From Escherichia phage BF15, in the sequence record MW822007.1: DNA of 64,000 bases, one strand, 5' to 3'. How positions within the stretch are numbered: the stretch's first letter is position 1; each line of letters opens with the position of its first letter. The translations under genes and the position numbers were made by a program. The notes below the pieces were generated by a model. That model worked only from the letters and a program-made list of their open reading frames with translations. It had not been told where the DNA came from and searched no databases. This document shows positions 3,689 to 55,543 of this stretch, in pieces.

Positions 3689-4291
3689 TTATAGATTAAA
3701 TCCTTCAAAATCAAGAGTATAGATAGTGTATGTTGAATACTTTTTATACTCGTATCTATCCGCAATTCTAAATACACTTCCAGCTGGTATCATTACTTCT
3801 TGTTCATCTGAAACTAATTCCATATTACGATAGCGATGGCTATCCGGAAACTTAAAACTTGGACTATATTCTTTACAACGTAGAGCTTTTATAGCATACT
3901 CCTGGAAATTAAATACCATAGGAGCTTTGAATTCAAAAATAACTTGTGTATTGTATTCTAATCCAGAAGCAAAATGTAGAGCTATATTTTTATCATATGA
4001 AGCTGATACTACTTTATCAAATGTAATAATATCAATTCCTTGATTTAACACTTGTTTAGTCTCAACTGGAACACCTCTCCAAAGAGGTTTATCGTTTGGA
4101 ACCAAACGAGATTTGATTATTTCATTTAACCAAGAATGATCGTCTGGCTTATTAGTAATACAATGAATTAAAAGTTCAATTTCGGATAAATTAAATCCTT
4201 CAGAAAGTAATTCTTCACGAATAGAAGCACGCACCGATGCATCCATTGATTTGATTTTAAAATCTTTTAATTGCATTGCTGAATATTTCAT
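3689..4291 (-). CDS. modA: ModA ADP-ribosyltransferase
   Basis: 200 aa, size and position as T4 ModA; paralog of the adjacent ORF. Confidence 0.75.
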   Translation of the reverse strand: MKYSAMQLKDFKIKSMDASVRASIREELLSEGFNLSEIELLIHCITNKPDDHSWLNEIIKSRLVPNDKPLWRGVPVETKQVLNQGIDIITFDKVVSASYDKNIALHFASGLEYNTQVIFEFKAPMVFNFQEYAIKALRCKEYSPSFKFPDSHRYRNMELVSDEQEVMIPAGSVFRIADRYEYKKYSTYTIYTLDFEGFNL

Positions 4292-4911
4292 TCAACTACC
4301 TCAATATCATACACTTTAAATGTTCCAAATGAATCGTGTAATTTTTCTTTTGAAATAGAAGTTATTTTATACTTTCCAATTGGAATCATCCATTCTTGTT
4401 CACGCACAATCATCATTAAGTTATCAGTACGTTCTGAATCTAATCCATCAGTATCTTCATATGTATACTTAAACTCAGTGTTAGGAGAAGAAAGTATAAT
4501 ATCGCTGATATGGTCAGAGTAATTAAAAGCTTTATCAGTTTTTAAGCGAAATATTATTTCAGTGGAATATTCAACATAAGAAAAACCACATGCTGTGTGC
4601 AAACTAGTAGTAAATGAATCTACTCTGTTCGTTGAAAACACTTCTCCAACTTGTAAATCTTTAATGAGTTCTTTTGTCGATTTTGATATACCACGATATA
4701 ACTGATAAGGTGATTCAGTTAAATGCTTTTTAATGATTTTATTCAACTGCCGATGAAGAGCTTCATTCTTTTTGGCTTCCATACATTGCCAAAGAACTGA
4801 CTGTTCAAAGTCAGTAAATTTTTCACAGACCTTTTTATACATATCATATTGAAAATCAACGCTTTCAGCTTTTATAGATAACTGTTCAACATCTGCAAGA
4901 TTAATAATCAT
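4288..4911 (-). CDS. modB: ModB ADP-ribosyltransferase
   Basis: ORF-track start 4923 moved to ATG at 4911 (GGAGG 4-5 nt upstream), giving 207 aa as in T4 ModB. Confidence 0.75.
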   Translation of the reverse strand: MIINLADVEQLSIKAESVDFQYDMYKKVCEKFTDFEQSVLWQCMEAKKNEALHRQLNKIIKKHLTESPYQLYRGISKSTKELIKDLQVGEVFSTNRVDSFTTSLHTACGFSYVEYSTEIIFRLKTDKAFNYSDHISDIILSSPNTEFKYTYEDTDGLDSERTDNLMMIVREQEWMIPIGKYKITSISKEKLHDSFGTFKVYDIEVVE

Positions 4912-4937
4912 GATAGCCTCCATATACTTCAGAAGCT

Positions 4938-5169: not shown

Positions 5170-5640
5170 CTAGCGATAAAAACCAAAATAACGATTAGTT
5201 TCAATAATCTTTCTTTCTTCTTCGGACATTCTCCAGTGTAGTCCAACATCAAAATGAGCCCAGACCATCTTAACAAATGCATTTATATCTTTAATATCTT
5301 CAATAATGAATGTTTTACTTTTAGAAGGTTGACTCGCTAATTTAACTTTATCGTCTTCAAATAGGTAAAAAAGACCATATTCATGAGCTCTTTTATAGCC
5401 TTTGATAGTTAAAGCCTCAGAAGAAGAAAATGGTGAATCAGTATGCTGCAAAATATCTTCAGTATGCTTTATAATTAGAATAACATTTTCTGGATATTTT
5501 CTTTCTTTTATATCTTTAATTAAAAGGCCCGGATTTTCTGCTAAAGGAATAATTAATGAGCAATTTTTGTCAAGCGTATTTACTGATTTACCTTCTTTAG
5601 ACATAAATTCTATTGAATAATGTTTTGCTACTTCAATCAT
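5170..5640 (-). CDS. hypothetical protein
   Basis: 156 aa ORF in modB-soc variable block. Confidence 0.45.
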
Positions 5641-5793: not shown

Positions 5794-5997
5794 TCACGAT
5801 TTATCCCCATAGATGTCTCTCATCAATTTAAGCGCTGAGCGTTCTAATTTCTTTTCTTTCTCAGCACTAATCATTGATTTCATCCATTCTTCTGATTCAT
5901 TCTGTATTTCTTTATTTGCCTGTTCAACCCAACCATCATCAATGTACATTGAGTTTGGTCTACTGAACCATTCAAACATTTTCTTCAGAACTTTCAT
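5794..5997 (-). CDS. hypothetical protein
   Basis: 67 aa ORF. Confidence 0.4.
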
Positions 5998-6469
5998 TTA
6001 TTTTACCTAAAACAACAGTAGGAGCATCATCAAATTTATGAATTTTTAGCAAATTTGGATTTAAACTATTCCATAAAGAGGTAATAAAATATGATAGCGC
6101 ATTTTCTTCCGTAATTATAAATTTATTTCCCTTATCTATTTTCCAGTCATATATTGAATCATATGAATATAATGTCAACGGTTTATTGTTATAATATGCT
6201 TCAGCAACATCAATATAGTTAGATTTAGTAAATGCTTGAATTGACATAAATGGAGAATTTCGTACAGTTTCAATAATTCCGATCTTTTTAAGTTTTATTT
6301 CAACATCTTCTGGAACTGGCATTGAAATAAAATCTTCTACTAGATACATGCTATTATCATATCTTTTATCAATCATTACTGCTACTGTAATTGGAACATC
6401 TTTAGCAAACGACATGCTATTACTGCTAATATACATTTCAAACAAAATCGCTTCCATAATTTTCCTCAA
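5972..6469 (-). CDS. hypothetical protein
   Basis: 165 aa ORF. Confidence 0.45.
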
Positions 6470-8004: not shown

Positions 8005-9344
<1,340 letters not shown>

Positions 9345-49841: not shown

Positions 49842-50054
49842 TCATTTTTGTCCTGTATTTACTTTATGCCGATGCACGGCCTTAACTTTATCAAGGTATT
49901 TTTCAAAATTTCGCAATCTAGTATAGTCTGCCGGAGATTGGTTGAGTGATACTTCTCGACGCAAAGCTGAAATGATATTTCCAACTTCCCTACGAATTTC
50001 ATCTAATTGAAGCACAGTAAGATTGCGAAGTTGCTTTTCAGTTAATTGTAGCAT
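49842..50054 (-). CDS. hypothetical protein (rI.1 position)
   Basis: 70 aa ORF. Confidence 0.45.
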
Positions 50055-50096
50055 ATATACCCCTTTAGTTAGATAAACCTATTTATAACTTTTGCA

Positions 50097-50678
50097 CTAA
50101 CCGAGCTTTTTAGTTAATTCATTCCAATGTTTTCTACACAAAGAAACATAAATTTCATCACCAATACAGATTTGATTACCTTCTTTAACTGGTGTTCCAT
50201 CTTCCATTAATCGAGCTGTCATAATCGCTTTTTTACCGCAATGACAAACTGCTTTTAGTTCAATAAGTTTATCTGCAATCGCCAAAAGTTCTTTAGAACC
50301 TTCAAATAATTTTCCGGCGAAATCAGTCCTTAATCCATAAGCCATAACAGGAACATTATATGTATCAACAATTCGACTTAATTGATGCACCTGTTCAGTT
50401 TTTAAAAATTGGGCTTCATCTACAAATACGCAATGAATATCTTTTTGTGCTTCAGCCCATTTATAGAACTCGAAAATATCCATATCATCTGTAATAATAT
50501 TCGCTTCCTGCTTAATTCCAATGCGAGAAACGACTTCACAGACAGAATCGCGAGTATCAATAGCAGGCTTAAGAACTAATACACTCATTCCACGTTCTTT
50601 ATAATTATGTGCAGCAGTCAAAAGAGAAGCAGATTTTCCAGCATTCATTGCCGCATAAGTAAAAATTAAACTCGCCAT
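50097..50678 (-). CDS. tk: thymidine kinase
   Basis: 193 aa; P-loop NAGKS; C-terminal zinc-binding Cys pairs. Confidence 0.9.
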   Translation of the reverse strand: MASLIFTYAAMNAGKSASLLTAAHNYKERGMSVLVLKPAIDTRDSVCEVVSRIGIKQEANIITDDMDIFEFYKWAEAQKDIHCVFVDEAQFLKTEQVHQLSRIVDTYNVPVMAYGLRTDFAGKLFEGSKELLAIADKLIELKAVCHCGKKAIMTARLMEDGTPVKEGNQICIGDEIYVSLCRKHWNELTKKLG

Positions 50679-50679
50679 T

Positions 50680-50868
50680 TTAATCCTTAGTTAAATTTTC
50701 TAAATATGTTTTTAAATCATTTTCAGCTTTATCGATAGATTTTACTAATTCGTAATATGTTTCGGCATCTCCATATTCAGAAGATATTTCAAAAGACAAA
50801 TCCTTTTCTAAACTAATAATTTCACCAACTAAAAATAATATTTCGTTCTTTTGTTCGCGAGTAATCAT
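50680..50868 (-). CDS. hypothetical protein (tk.x, small acidic paralog)
   Basis: 62 aa; resembles next ORF. Confidence 0.4.
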   Translation of the reverse strand: MITREQKNEILFLVGEIISLEKDLSFEISSEYGDAETYYELVKSIDKAENDLKTYLENLTKD

Positions 50869-51056
50869 AAGGAATTTATATAATTAATAAGTTCTTGTTC
50901 TTTATTATCGAATTCTTTAGAAAGTTCTTCGTACTCGTTTGCACTAAAAGGACCGCATTCATTACAAACTTTTTCCAATTCACTATTTTTATCCATAACT
51001 TCGTGGATAAGAGAAAAGAGTTTGTCTTTTTGTTCTTTACTTAAACTCATAACCAT
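50865..51056 (-). CDS. hypothetical protein (tk.x, small acidic paralog)
   Basis: 63 aa. Confidence 0.4.
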   Translation of the reverse strand: MVMSLSKEQKDKLFSLIHEVMDKNSELEKVCNECGPFSANEYEELSKEFDNKEQELINYINSL

Positions 51057-51274
51057 GTCACCTTTAAGCAGTATTCTTCTACATGCTGTTTACGACCTTT
51101 CTTATCAATAAAGGTATATTCAACGAATGTTCCAATGTAGTCTTTATCGACATCATGTGGACTATTAATTGGACATTTAGTACGGCAAATGCGTTCCCAT
51201 TGACGAATAATTACTGCCTTATTCTTTGGGTCATACGGATGTGGATAATGTATATTCATAATAATGGTTCCCAA
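51047..51274 (-). CDS. hypothetical protein (tk.x)
   Basis: 75 aa ORF. Confidence 0.4.
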   Translation of the reverse strand: MGTIIMNIHYPHPYDPKNKAVIIRQWERICRTKCPINSPHDVDKDYIGTFVEYTFIDKKGRKQHVEEYCLKVTWL

Positions 51275-51723
51275 TCAACAATCACAATTTCTAATTTAGA
51301 GGAATATGTATCTAAAATCCCCTCAATAATATCCCAGTTCCCTTTACCTATGCCTGCACCAATCCTAGGCATATAGATTGTAGGTTTAATTAGTTTATTT
51401 TCACCAAACTCATTTAATTCTAACATACAATTCATTAAAGCGGAATACTCAAAATTTGGCCCTGGTTGAAATTGAGTATAAAGATTAAAGCAGCAAGCTT
51501 TATGAGTCCTAAAGTATTTTTCATAGACTGAATAAGAACCAAGTTTAGTTACATCACCCCATTCAGTCTGTAATTTATCAGCTTCCAAAATTTTAGGGAA
51601 AGCTTTGGTTAATTGACCTGCGACTCCAGCTTTCATCATGTGAAAACAATTACATCCATGCGCAATATTTTTACCTTCAGCGAAAAGGGCGACAATATCG
51701 CCCTTGATATATTTTACAATCAT
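51256..51723 (-). CDS. putative macro-domain protein (ADP-ribose binding/hydrolase fold)
   Basis: 155 aa; GDIV-x9-IAHGCNC and MKAGVAG blocks resemble macro-domain GDIT...VNAAN and GGGVAGA motifs; later PRIGAGIGKG glycine loop. Confidence 0.5.
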   Translation of the reverse strand: MIVKYIKGDIVALFAEGKNIAHGCNCFHMMKAGVAGQLTKAFPKILEADKLQTEWGDVTKLGSYSVYEKYFRTHKACCFNLYTQFQPGPNFEYSALMNCMLELNEFGENKLIKPTIYMPRIGAGIGKGNWDIIEGILDTYSSKLEIVIVDWEPLL

Positions 51724-52067
51724 CTAGTACTCAATCCTCTATTATAAGAATCTACCAAACGGTCAACCATTGAATGACAAGCGGCTTTATCTTTCTCCTC
51801 CGCAACTGAACATTCTAAGGTATTCCACTTTTTAGCATATCGTTTTAATAATGTATCGTTTTTGTATCTGCTTGATTTATCTCTTTCTCCGTCTTTATAT
51901 GCATATATTAATTTCTGTGCAAATTCAGCTTGGCATGCTTTATTTTTCCCACAATAATCTGCCGCAGTGCGGTTTACATATTCTCTAATTTCAGTATATG
52001 ATGTATCTGCTGACGCAGAAGCAGAAAATGAAATTAATCCTATACATAAAACCAAAATTTTAGTCAT
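51720..52067 (-). CDS. secreted hypothetical protein (vs position)
   Basis: 115 aa with signal peptide. Confidence 0.4.
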   Translation of the reverse strand: MTKILVLCIGLISFSASASADTSYTEIREYVNRTAADYCGKNKACQAEFAQKLIYAYKDGERDKSSRYKNDTLLKRYAKKWNTLECSVAEEKDKAACHSMVDRLVDSYNRGLSTR

Positions 52068-52605
52068 TTACTATTTCCAAAAGTTTATTATTTTTAAGGT
52101 AATTAGCCTTTTCTAGGACTTCAGAAGCATATTTAGAACCAGCTTTAACATTCCATCCCGAATTATAAGAGGATATTGCTTTTCTTATATCACCCTTATG
52201 TATATTTAACCAATAAGAAAGTTCAATGTACGCCCAGGAAGCTGAATTGGATCGTTTATTCAACATTCTTTTTATTTCAGCATCGGTCATATTATAACCA
52301 AGTTCCTTAACTCTTGCTCGCATAGTAGGCAAATAATTTTGGAACATTCCGTAGGCGTGATGCTTTGGTTTAGATTTTAAATTAACTCCGCCAGAGCTTT
52401 CTTGCCATAAAATAGCAGCCATTATATGACCTAATCCGCTCTTGTGGATATTTTTGTGTGTTTTATATTTTCCATCCTTAGAAAACTGTTCCCCGAATTG
52501 ATACGCGTAACGCATGTTATCGAGTTGGACATTACTGAAAGTATGCTCGGAGCTATGTGCCATCATTGAAATGGCCAATAGACCAGCGAGTAGTGCTTTT
52601 CTCAT
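52060..52605 (-). CDS. lytic transglycosylase-like protein (SLT domain)
   Basis: 181 aa; signal peptide; WQESSGG catalytic-Glu motif. Confidence 0.6.
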   Translation of the reverse strand: MRKALLAGLLAISMMAHSSEHTFSNVQLDNMRYAYQFGEQFSKDGKYKTHKNIHKSGLGHIMAAILWQESSGGVNLKSKPKHHAYGMFQNYLPTMRARVKELGYNMTDAEIKRMLNKRSNSASWAYIELSYWLNIHKGDIRKAISSYNSGWNVKAGSKYASEVLEKANYLKNNKLLEIVND

Positions 52606-52612
52606 GCTTACC

Positions 52613-53074
52613 TCATTGAGTTTTAATTACTGCTTTAGAAGCCTTTCCTGGTAAACGACGACTGTTAATAATTGCCATCCTGCATTGAAGCGACGGGTCT
52701 TTGAACTTCGCATTAGGTTTACAAACTGTAAATCCAAGCCAAAGATTTCCATCTGTGATTTCTAAACGTCCAGGACGATATTCAACCCCATCAATAAAAT
52801 CCTCGTCAATGTCAGGACGCGGAGGCATACTCAGGAATTCATTAACTTCTAAAACATGGTCTTTTATTTTATGGAATAATTCAAAAACGTATGTCTCATC
52901 AATCTCCCGTTGAATTGCGCGATCAAGAAGATGTTGAGAATATTTTAGATGAAACGATGAGACCCCTGCTGCTTTTGATGCCTCACGAATCTCATTGTTA
53001 ATTTGACGAAACTCCGACTCAAAGTGACGACGAAGCTTATTTCGACGGATAAAAACTTCTGTGTTGATAGTCAT
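52613..53074 (-). CDS. regB: RegB endoribonuclease
   Basis: 153 aa; matches T4 RegB; early promoter at 53102-53131. Confidence 0.9.
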   Translation of the reverse strand: MTINTEVFIRRNKLRRHFESEFRQINNEIREASKAAGVSSFHLKYSQHLLDRAIQREIDETYVFELFHKIKDHVLEVNEFLSMPPRPDIDEDFIDGVEYRPGRLEITDGNLWLGFTVCKPNAKFKDPSLQCRMAIINSRRLPGKASKAVIKTQ

Positions 53075-53101
53075 GTTATTCTCCTCTTAACTGATAGAAA
53101 A

Positions 53102-53131
53102 ATTATACCACAGTCAAGAGGAAAAGTAAAC
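53102..53131 (-). promoter_or_regulatory. T4-type early promoter (regB)
   Basis: minus strand GTTTAC-N18-TATAAT, 28 nt upstream of regB ATG. Confidence 0.65.
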
Positions 53132-53133
53132 AG

Positions 53134-53454
53134 TTATTCTTTAAATCTAATCAATTTATTCATAGACTTTGAAACTTCTGCACGAACCTCATGTAGATTT
53201 TTGAGCTGTTCAAGACGCTGCGTATAGTAAGCAATTTCATCTTCTTCGAGACAGTCCTGTGAATCTTCTTTAAGATAACGTGCATAGTCCTGAAAAGCGT
53301 TACGAACTACTTCCTGGAAGTCATCAAGACTTTGAATTTTCTTAGGAGCAGCAGATACACGACGAGGGGCAGTATAATACTCATAACCAAACCCTGCGCT
53401 TAATTGAGCCATTAGTATTTTTCCTCTGGTTGGAACACTGCACGACAAGCCCAC
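53134..53454 (-). CDS. hypothetical protein (vs.3 position)
   Basis: 106 aa ORF. Confidence 0.4.
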
Positions 53455-53714
53455 ATACTGGCTTCTTTGAGTTTCGTTTTAGCAATAGTTAACTGATCGA
53501 GGCTTTCGGCGTAATTCTTCGCGAGTTCATCATCTTCACAGCTATCAAATGCTTCCCAAAATTCATCGTATAAAGCATCAAAGATAAGTCCTAAACGAAC
53601 TTCAGCGTCTTTAATAGCATTTACTTTACCGATTTTTTCGTCGGTATGTGGCTTATAACCTTTAATATCTTCAATCATATTTGACTTCCTCACCAGTACA
53701 TAAATCGTATTCAA
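53412..53714 (-). CDS. hypothetical protein (vs.4 position)
   Basis: 100 aa ORF, second gene right of regB; start may be internal. Confidence 0.4.
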
Positions 53715-53892
53715 CTAAACGAATAGGTTCATGAATGCCATATCCCTGAACAGAAATTTCTGTAGTAGGATAAATTCCATTAATATCACCCATGTTCCAT
53801 GCTTCGTTAAATTGCTGTTCGCCTGAATTACTAAACCATTCGGCGAAAGCATTTAGCACATCTTCAGAACCTTCAATAATTATCTTTGCCAT
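53671..53892 (-). CDS. hypothetical protein (vs.5 position)
   Basis: 73 aa ORF. Confidence 0.4.
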   Translation of the reverse strand: MAKIIIEGSEDVLNAFAEWFSNSGEQQFNEAWNMGDINGIYPTTEISVQGYGIHEPIRLVEYDLCTGEEVKYD

Positions 53893-54254
53893 TACAAACT
53901 CTCGGTAAAGGTACGAGCGATAACGTCGCGCTGCTGTTCCGGAGTCAGAGAGTTAAAGCGAACTGCATAACCGGATACACGGATGGTCAGCTGCGGATAT
54001 TTTTCCGGATGCTTAACTGCATCTTCCAGAGTTTCACGACGCAGCACGTTTACGTTCAGGTGTTGACCACCTTCAATTTTAACTGTAGGCTGTTGCTCAA
54101 TTTCAATTTCACGGGCATGCAAACCGTAGAAAATTTCTGGGTCTACAAAAGAGTCCTCTTTAAAGGTTTTAGAGACAATAATTCGTGCTTGAATACCATC
54201 TTCAAAATAAATAGTACCTTTATGTGTGCCTTCAAGAATTTGATATGCTTTCAT
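53892..54254 (-). CDS. GrcA/YfiD-like autonomous glycyl radical cofactor
   Basis: 120 aa; C-terminal ~60 aa ([60 protein letters not shown]) match E. coli GrcA as recalled; 3' half visibly GC-rich. Confidence 0.8.
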
Positions 54255-54261
54255 ATAAACC

Positions 54262-54642
54262 TCAATTAGAAAATAAATTTATCCAAGATTGTTCTTTAAT
54301 TAAAAATGGCTCAGAATCATATGCCATTAAACTCTGTGTGATTAGTCCTTTAAAAGGCCCATCAATAAATTCCATGGTAAAATATGGAATTTTATTCATT
54401 AGCCGTGCATTAGGAGCAGTACATAAAACTCTGCATCCTTTGAATACACCTTTTTGTAATTTGTATTGCTTGGGATAAAATTCGCTCAAAATGTTGTTAT
54501 TTGCCAAAATTTCAAAATGATTTACCAATTTATTTTTAATAGTTTTTGGCGAAAAATAGAGATATTCGAAAAGCTGAGTGTCTGTCATCATTGCATTCCG
54601 ATTACGAAAAACTGTGGACGAGTAATACCACCAATACAACAT
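54262..54642 (-). CDS. hypothetical protein (vs.7 position)
   Basis: 126 aa ORF. Confidence 0.4.
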
Positions 54643-55127
54643 TTAATATTACAGCAGCAGTGTACAGTGTCAATATGGACACTATAAATCTTATCCATAT
54701 CAGGAGATTTGACAGGCTCGTCAATTATATACAAAATTCGCGAAAGCGATAAACCTCTGAACTTGCTTCCTTTATTACCAATAAAACTGCGTACAGAATC
54801 AGTAAATAAACGAAAACGTATATCATCATTAGAATAACGCGAAAATTCCTTTTTAATGTTATTTGCAGAAATTTTAGCGTAAGCTGAAGTATTAGAAAGA
54901 ACAATAACTGTTCCGCCATCATACAACCAATTAGCAGCAAAGTTAGTCACAGCAATTGATTTACCGGATTGACGCCCACCATCTAGTCGAAGTGTGCAAT
55001 ACTGTTTAAGTAAGTCTTCAAATGGCGGGATATATTCGTTTTTACAAATTTCTTCTACTCTAGCATCAGAATGGTGTGTAAAAGCATTCATCAGGGATAG
55101 ATAAGGTCCAGTTAAAAATGTTCTCAT
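54588..55127 (-). CDS. small P-loop NTPase-like protein
   Basis: 179 aa; Walker A GGRQSGKS, Walker B-like ILYIIDEP; ATG at 55127. Confidence 0.45.
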   Translation of the reverse strand: MRTFLTGPYLSLMNAFTHHSDARVEEICKNEYIPPFEDLLKQYCTLRLDGGRQSGKSIAVTNFAANWLYDGGTVIVLSNTSAYAKISANNIKKEFSRYSNDDIRFRLFTDSVRSFIGNKGSKFRGLSLSRILYIIDEPVKSPDMDKIYSVHIDTVHCCCNIKCCIGGITRPQFFVIGMQ

Positions 55128-55208
55128 TTAGTTTCTCTTTTAGGTTGGGCCATTCCGTGGCGCATGAATTGTCCATTTCTGTATTTACCCCTCCAAGTAA
55201 TTATGAAT

Positions 55209-55238
55209 ATACTATCACAATTCTAGGAGAAAGTAAAC
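55209..55238 (-). promoter_or_regulatory. T4-type early promoter (P-loop gene)
   Basis: minus strand GTTTAC with TAGTAT-like -10. Confidence 0.45.
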
Positions 55239-55240
55239 TG

Positions 55241-55543
55241 TTATTTACCTTTAATTACTTTAGCTGCTTCGATAGCCGCTTGCTGAAGGTCATCCATAGA
55301 CATACCGAATTTAGAAGCAAAGTTATCAATTTTCTTTTCGACAGCATTCAAAGGCTTGGCCTGTTTACCTTCATTAGCGCCAGGAAGAGCGAGAATACGC
55401 TCTTTGTCAATATAAAGGCTTACAAGTTTCTTACGGTCTTTATCGGACAAATCATGAAATGAATGGGCCTTTTTATTTATAGCGGCTTCTAATTTACCTG
55501 CACTCACTCGCGCTTCAGTAATAAATTCTTGATATGTTTTCAT
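55241..55543 (-). CDS. ipII: internal protein IPII
   Basis: 100 aa; capsid-targeting leader MKTYQEFITEA; size as T4 IPII. Confidence 0.75.
   Translation of the reverse strand: MKTYQEFITEARVSAGKLEAAINKKAHSFHDLSDKDRKKLVSLYIDKERILALPGANEGKQAKPLNAVEKKIDNFASKFGMSMDDLQQAAIEAAKVIKGK

Follow-up and report, generated by a model that had tools for sequence, protein, structure and literature searches.

Tk.4 of Escherichia phage BF15: a stand-alone macrodomain with a predicted glutamine-type active site and a probable role against DarTG2

In a 64,000-nucleotide stretch of Escherichia phage BF15 (hereafter the window), the minus-strand open reading frame (ORF) 51256..51723 is the orthologue of T4 tk.4/adfM. 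It encodes a stand-alone macrodomain that most probably (roughly 80%) guards phage DNA from DarTG2, most likely by hydrolysis with a Gln-type active site. Both the macro domain and the anti-DarTG2 role of tk.4 are already known from the work of others; tk.4 orthologues were recognised as matching A1pp/macro as early as 2006 (PMC1524935). The fold, class, orthology and active-site residues described below were established in this analysis, and the knockout phenotype and the enzymology of SCO6735, DarG and PhiKZ AdfM are taken from published work.

The gene starts with ATG and encodes 155 aa comprising a single macro domain and no extra domain, as indicated by the ORF list, identity to T4T, Pfam, PHROG and an AlphaFold2 model. 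Positions 50000-53200 of the window were 98.3-98.7% identical by megablast to phage T2, vB_Eco_F26, SH7 and others, and the source of the window is a Tequatrovirus. In the T2 record (LC348380), the counterpart gene tk.4 is also on the minus strand and flanked by vs and tk.3, within a minus-strand string that the T2 annotation gives as regB - vs.1 - vs - tk.4 - tk.3 - ... - tk. Reading the window sequence, we found that the vs stop codon (TGA) and the tk.4 start codon (ATG) overlap as ATGA at 51720..51723 (minus), and that a second ATGA, at 51256..51259 (minus), joins the end of tk.4 (TGA) to the annotated beginning of tk.3 (ATG); both 4-base overlaps are present in the T2 and T4T annotations. 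The protein is identical to T4T Tk.4 at 151 of 155 residues (97%), with equal length and full 155/155 coverage, and the T4T record is annotated "contains A1pp phosphatase motif". High identity, conserved synteny and the 4-base overlaps thus identify the ORF, at the level of sequence, as the orthologue of T4 tk.4 (AdfM).

Two plus-strand ORFs at 51083..51376 and 51613..51747 were set aside as mechanical ORFs; T2 and T4T annotate nothing on that strand in this interval. A scan of 50000..55500 for sigma-70 promoters and terminators returned 20 promoter-like sites, compared with 20.8 expected from shuffles. The megablast match to T2 fell into two pieces, covering 3574 bases in T2 and 3201 in the query. 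Between tk.2 and tk.3, T2 and several of its relatives have two additional small ORFs, T2_114 and T2_115 (LC348380 4048-4430, segment L001; window equivalent about 51047-51056), which have no counterpart in the window or in T4T.

The initial annotation had called a macro domain from four motifs of this 155 aa ORF (GDIV, IAHGCNC, MKAGVAG and PRIGAGIGKG). All four are present, and the call is borne out by sequence, Pfam profile and predicted fold. The Pfam Macro model (PF01661) matched Tk.4 with an E-value of 2.4e-5 and 24.7 bits, above the gathering score of 22, over residues 22-132 (2-113 of the 118 profile positions), and PHROG 335 matched at 1.5e-63. A single-sequence search of the PDB with Tk.4 retrieved Bt_1257 (3e-8), Poa1p (6e-5) and TARG1 (2e-3). 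We collected 102 Tk.4 homologues, 68 of which were aligned and served as the basis for the conservation counts and the AlphaFold2 model. Searching with the family profile strengthened these matches and extended them to further macrodomains (Bt_1257, 8e-21; TARG1, 2e-17; SCO6735, 3e-16; Poa1p, 7e-15; DarG, 2e-14), with nsp3 Mac1 at 3e-3.

The AlphaFold2 model built from the 68-sequence alignment had a mean pLDDT of 95.3 and a pTM of 0.90. It adopts the three-layer alpha/beta/alpha arrangement of the macro fold, and macro-domain structures accounted for all of the top fold matches in Foldseek, including TARG1 (1e-9) and DarG of Thermus aquaticus (Taq DarG; 2.7e-7). The nearest neighbours were TARG1, DarG, Poa1p, SCO6735/Bt_1257 and ALC1, and not MacroD, PARG or viral Mac1. 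Because both the family profile and Foldseek favour TARG1/DarG/SCO6735-type structures, we assign Tk.4 to the ALC1-like (TARG1/DarG/SCO6735) class of macrodomains.

The motifs expected of an ADP-ribose pocket can be placed along the protein. Near the N terminus, G8-D9-I10-V11 aligns with the "GDL" motif of TARG1. It is followed by H22-G23-C24-N25-C26 (51646..51660, minus; within I20-A-H-G-C-N-C26), located by alignment to TARG1, DarG and Bt_1257, and by the diphosphate-binding loop 1, M30-K31-A32-G33-V34-A35 (51619..51636, minus; originally quoted through G36). A strand and loop, N80-L-Y-T83-Q84-F-Q-P-G88, lie at 51460..51486 (minus), and loop 2, P119-R-I-G-A-G-I-G126-K-G-N-W130, at 51334..51369 (minus), aligned with TARG1 "PRIGCGLDRLQW". 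Loop 1 (xGxG[IV]A) and loop 2 (PxIGxG) are conserved and together make up a predicted ADP-ribose-binding signature. The 68 diverse homologues show no variation at G23, N25, G33, A35, G62, Q84, P119 or G122; H22, C24 and C26, and I121, G124, G128 and W130 of loop 2, are conserved in at least 90% of sequences, and M30 is kept in 63 of 68.

The active site is where Tk.4 departs from DarG. Residue Q84 (codon 51472..51474, minus) falls at the position of the catalytic Lys, TARG1 Lys84 and DarG Lys80, in three independent alignments: one with PhiKZ gp104 (hhalign), one with TARG1 and Bt_1257 (hmmsearch) and one with TARG1, two DarGs, Bt_1257 and gp104 (MAFFT). Alignment with TARG1 places G126 at the site of Asp125. 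Gln also occupies the Q84 site in Bt_1257 by alignment, and the same NMIGQ motif is found in the SCO6735 sequence. The counterparts of N25 are SCO6735 Asn27, the conserved Asn of DarG and N23 of PhiKZ AdfM, and SCO6735 and PhiKZ AdfM are both impaired when that Asn is mutated (PMC9411070; PMC13309987). The Gln-type subclass is defined by Gln in place of Lys together with a positioning Asn (PMC9411070), and both residues are present in Tk.4 and in 68/68 family sequences. Because the invariant Q84 sits at the DarG/TARG1 Lys site, as in SCO6735 and Bt_1257, Tk.4 is best read as a Gln-type relative and not as a copy of DarG. The available portions of the T4 AdfM literature make no mention of Gln at the Lys position. 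Catalytic-dead controls for T4-type AdfM would accordingly be Q84A and N25A, not a Lys mutant. Two extra features of the Gln-type subclass, a mobile loop longer by about 5 residues and the backbone carbonyl of Val/Ile25, are lacking in Tk.4.

The allele of this phage differs from those of T4 and T2 by four substitutions, T29M, G31K, S32A and Y77C, of which the first three lie in the phosphate-binding loop 1. G31 of T4 and T2 aligns with a Gly common to TARG1, DarG, Bt_1257 and Poa1p. Yet no more than 49 of the 68 sequences have Gly at this position. Lys31 recurs in five distant family members that keep every other motif, and residues other than Gly and Lys are likewise seen there in distant motif-intact members; a cluster of near-identical proteins (122 member sequences) also carries K31. 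Based on this variation among motif-intact relatives and on the 122-member K31 cluster, we rejected the idea that G31K marks an inactivated allele, and the K31 protein is probably active. A bolder reading is that the Tk.4 family constitutes a phage-specific third active-site type (Gln84, Asn25 and Gly23 with a short mobile loop), whose chemistry or substrate range is unlike that of DarG or SCO6735, extending for example to RNA-base ADP-ribosylation or to marks of undescribed defence ADP-ribosyltransferases (ARTs), with G31K as an adaptive specificity variant. We consider this unlikely.

The function of tk.4 has been approached genetically in T4. In a 2025 study from the Laub laboratory, loss of adfN from T2 or T4, or of adfA together with adfN from T4, left the phages resistant to DarTG2, and a further anti-DarTG2 factor was predicted from that resistance (PMC11825919). 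In the HIDEN-SEQ preprint of 2025, tk.4 is the sole T4 gene conditionally essential against DarTG2, and its insertions are depleted specifically in the DarTG2 host. When tk.4 is cleanly knocked out, T4 becomes sensitive to DarTG2; the gene was renamed adfM (anti-DarT factor macrodomain), and its predicted fold was likened to the macrodomain of M. tuberculosis DarG (10.1101/2025.11.20.689424). The initial annotation had proposed counter-defence against DarT-type toxins, which agrees with these genetics on the 97%-identical T4 orthologue; since the knockout and depletion results in the preprint make the same case, the idea was correct and had already been published. Searchable papers yielded no biochemical assay of T4 Tk.4, the T4 evidence being genetic and from the preprint. 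For other members of the class, enzymology is at hand. PhiKZ gp104 removes ADP-ribose in vitro from DarT2-modified DNA (Cell Rep 2026, PMC13309987), and SCO6735 strips thymidine-linked ADP-ribose from DNA and rescues E. coli from DarT, its Q85A mutant being inactive and N27S nearly so (PMC9411070). The authors of the latter study proposed that catalysis is water-mediated, with the Gln holding the distal ribose in position, and tied Val25 and the longer mobile loop to mechanism and processivity (PMC9411070).

We therefore propose the following mechanism. Host DarT2 places ADP-ribose on thymidine N3 in single-stranded DNA and thereby blocks replication. Tk.4, produced from the regB-vs.1-vs-tk.4-tk.3-...-tk string, would most likely hydrolyse the ADP-ribose-thymidine bond and free ADP-ribose, using an active site in which the invariant Q84 stands beside the invariant N25, as in SCO6735, and replaces the catalytic Lys. 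Replicating phage DNA would in this way be protected from the DarTG2 toxin-antitoxin defence, with Tk.4 itself presumably acting as the hydrolase. This supports the view that T-even phages possess layered enzymatic countermeasures to DNA ADP-ribosylating defences: AdfA, AdfN/30.3 against marks on guanine, and Tk.4/AdfM against those on thymine.

Protection could in principle be achieved mainly without catalysis, if Tk.4 bound and inhibited DarT2 or masked its product. The loss of the DarG/TARG1 catalytic Lys fits such a mode of action, as does the finding that the dead mutants SCO6735 Q85A, DarG K80A and TARG1 K84A inhibit DarT in vitro by interaction (PMC9411070). However, the whole ADP-ribose pocket (G23, N25, G33, A35, Q84, P119 and G122) is strictly conserved, which would be superfluous for pure toxin binding, and the 155 aa of Tk.4 consist of the macro domain only, with the C-terminal DarT-binding domain of DarG missing. 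Moreover, the Gln-type SCO6735 is a highly active hydrolase (PMC9411070). We regard a non-catalytic role as quite improbable.

Tk.4 might instead be a metabolite enzyme that acts, like Poa1p and OARD1, as an ADP-ribose-1''-phosphate phosphatase or an O-acetyl-ADP-ribose deacetylase. Such activities are common in vitro as side reactions of the ALC1-like class and are compatible with a role on DNA. The "phosphatase" label in the records goes back to the old A1pp domain name and not to any assay, Poa1p carries Ser instead of Gln at the site of Q84, and DarTG2 sensitivity is the only phenotype of tk.4 given in the available sources. Taken together, a dedicated metabolite function is very improbable.

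A substrate range broader than thymine-linked ADP-ribose was also weighed, in which Tk.4 additionally removes ADP-ribose from uracil in RNA, or reverses further base-linked marks of host toxins. TARG1, DarG and the Gln-type SCO6735 can each strip uracil N3 of its ADP-ribose in single-stranded RNA (PMC13036486), and the Tk.4 family is very widespread, including phages of hosts beyond those tested for DarTG2. Set against this, no bacterial uracil-ADP-ribosylating defence was found in the literature examined, CmdT targets adenine in a reaction described as irreversible (PMC13036486), and nothing within the window bears on the question. A broader range is accordingly improbable, and protection of DNA from DarTG2 remains our preferred reading.

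The initial annotation had pointed to modA and modB in the same window and suggested that the macrodomain might erase the phage's own ADP-ribosylation. Both genes are present, modA at 3689..4291 and modB at 4288..4923, and PHROG 832 ("RNA polymerase ADP-ribosylase") matches the former at 4e-33 and the latter at 4e-42; a Pfam search of ModA and ModB gave no match, and their identification rests on PHROGs. The proposal that Tk.4 erases ADP-ribosylation or RNAylation of host proteins by Alt, ModA or ModB draws on this co-occurrence and on the fact that T-even phages ADP-ribosylate host proteins. Alt, ModA and ModB, however, modify arginine, and macrodomains of the TARG1/DarG class are not known to act on this linkage. 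The documented substrates of that class are Glu/Asp esters and thymine or uracil N3 (PMC9411070, PMC13036486), which counts against an eraser of the phage's own marks, as does the specificity of tk.4 insertion depletion for the DarTG2 host in the available preprint text (10.1101/2025.11.20.689424).

Gene positions and phage distributions point the same way. The modA and modB genes lie 47 kb from tk.4, without linkage. Tk.4 homologues occurred in 2798 of 50,697 phage records (about 5%) spanning many phage families, with phages of Pseudomonas, Vibrio, Acinetobacter and Aeromonas among them as well as non-T4-like genomes of 83-160 kb, whereas ModB homologues were found in 1013 records, nearly all of them enterobacterial T4-likes. 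From 2798 versus 1013 records, it follows that most macrodomain-bearing phages have no detectable Mod enzyme. The link to ModA and ModB thus finds no support in gene distance or phage distribution, and we judge an own-mark eraser highly unlikely.

We also sought bacterial family members beside darT. Both homologues labelled as bacterial metagenome-assembled genomes (MAGs) that were examined (P0055 and P0068) lie on T4-like phage contigs, which carry Rnl1, a Dda-like helicase, PNKP and dCMP deaminase. As sampled, the Tk.4 family is phage-borne, and no toxin-linked relative or ancestor was found on the two MAG contigs examined. The MAG labels of these homologues (Bacilli and Culicoidibacterales; segments L003 1927-2397 and L004 6001-6480) indicate that MAG bins appear to include phage contigs.

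Several other genes of the window deserve mention. Two Mrh-like paralogues (PHROG 1234) lie close together on the minus strand at 5170..5640 and 5972..6469, matching Pfam T4_MRH at 3.6e-36 and 9.4e-42, respectively. A 186-aa ORF at 8784..9344 (minus) has a stop codon that overlaps the start codon of dam (8005..8784) by a single base, 8784. The ORF matches PHROG 8706, a group of unknown function, at 5.7e-116 and, weakly and below threshold, the Pfam DpnII restriction endonuclease model (E-value 0.0045, 16.8 bits compared with a gathering score of 23) as well as RE_BanI, and contains a 19-residue stretch resembling a PD-(D/E)XK motif. This ORF may be a candidate GATC-type nuclease-like gene adjoining the phage Dam methylase.

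Among named macrodomains, T4 Tk.4/AdfM (10.1101/2025.11.20.689424) is the closest counterpart, resembling the window gene in length, in its position between vs and tk.3 and in its overlapping start and stop codons. The human TARG1/OARD1 has a Lys84/Asp125 dyad, in place of which Tk.4 has Q84 and G126, and yeast Poa1p has Ser at the Gln84 position. SCO6735 (PDB 5E3B) and Bt_1257 (2FG1/2AFC) are Gln-type ALC1-like proteins with about 24-28% identity to Tk.4. They differ from it in the longer mobile loop (in Bt_1257, an insertion after the Gln), which is absent from Tk.4 and its family, and in Val25 of SCO6735, where Tk.4 has the invariant Gly23. They also differ in origin, SCO6735 being a chromosomal gene of the bacterium Streptomyces coelicolor and Bt_1257 coming from Bacteroides, whereas Tk.4 is encoded by a lytic phage.

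DarG (T. aquaticus 5M31/5M3E; M. tuberculosis 5M3I) combines Lys80 with a C-terminal DarT-binding domain and a neighbouring darT gene. Tk.4, unlike DarG, has Gln84 and lacks a second domain; the neighbours of its gene are vs, vs.1, regB and tk.3-tk, with no darT or other toxin gene beside it. The NCBIfam DarG model (NF048014) gave 24.4 bits against a cutoff of 250 and aligned only over model positions 2-146 of 338, and the PADLOC DarG model aligned only over positions 2-145 of 329, so that in both models the match is confined to the macro half. With an equivalog score far under the cutoff, no equivalent of the catalytic Lys (Taq DarG K80) and no adjacent darT, Tk.4 is not a member of the DarG family.

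PhiKZ gp104 (PMC13309987) is, like Tk.4, a phage-encoded stand-alone macrodomain with an anti-DarTG2 role, and the name AdfM was given independently to these two proteins. They share about 20% identity. PhiKZ gp104 is strongly DarG-like (9e-25 to M. tuberculosis DarG) and keeps the catalytic Lys in "FPTK", whereas Tk.4 is of the Gln type. Because T4 AdfM is Gln-type and PhiKZ AdfM Lys-type and DarG-like, two branches of one macrodomain class have been recruited separately by phages for the same job.
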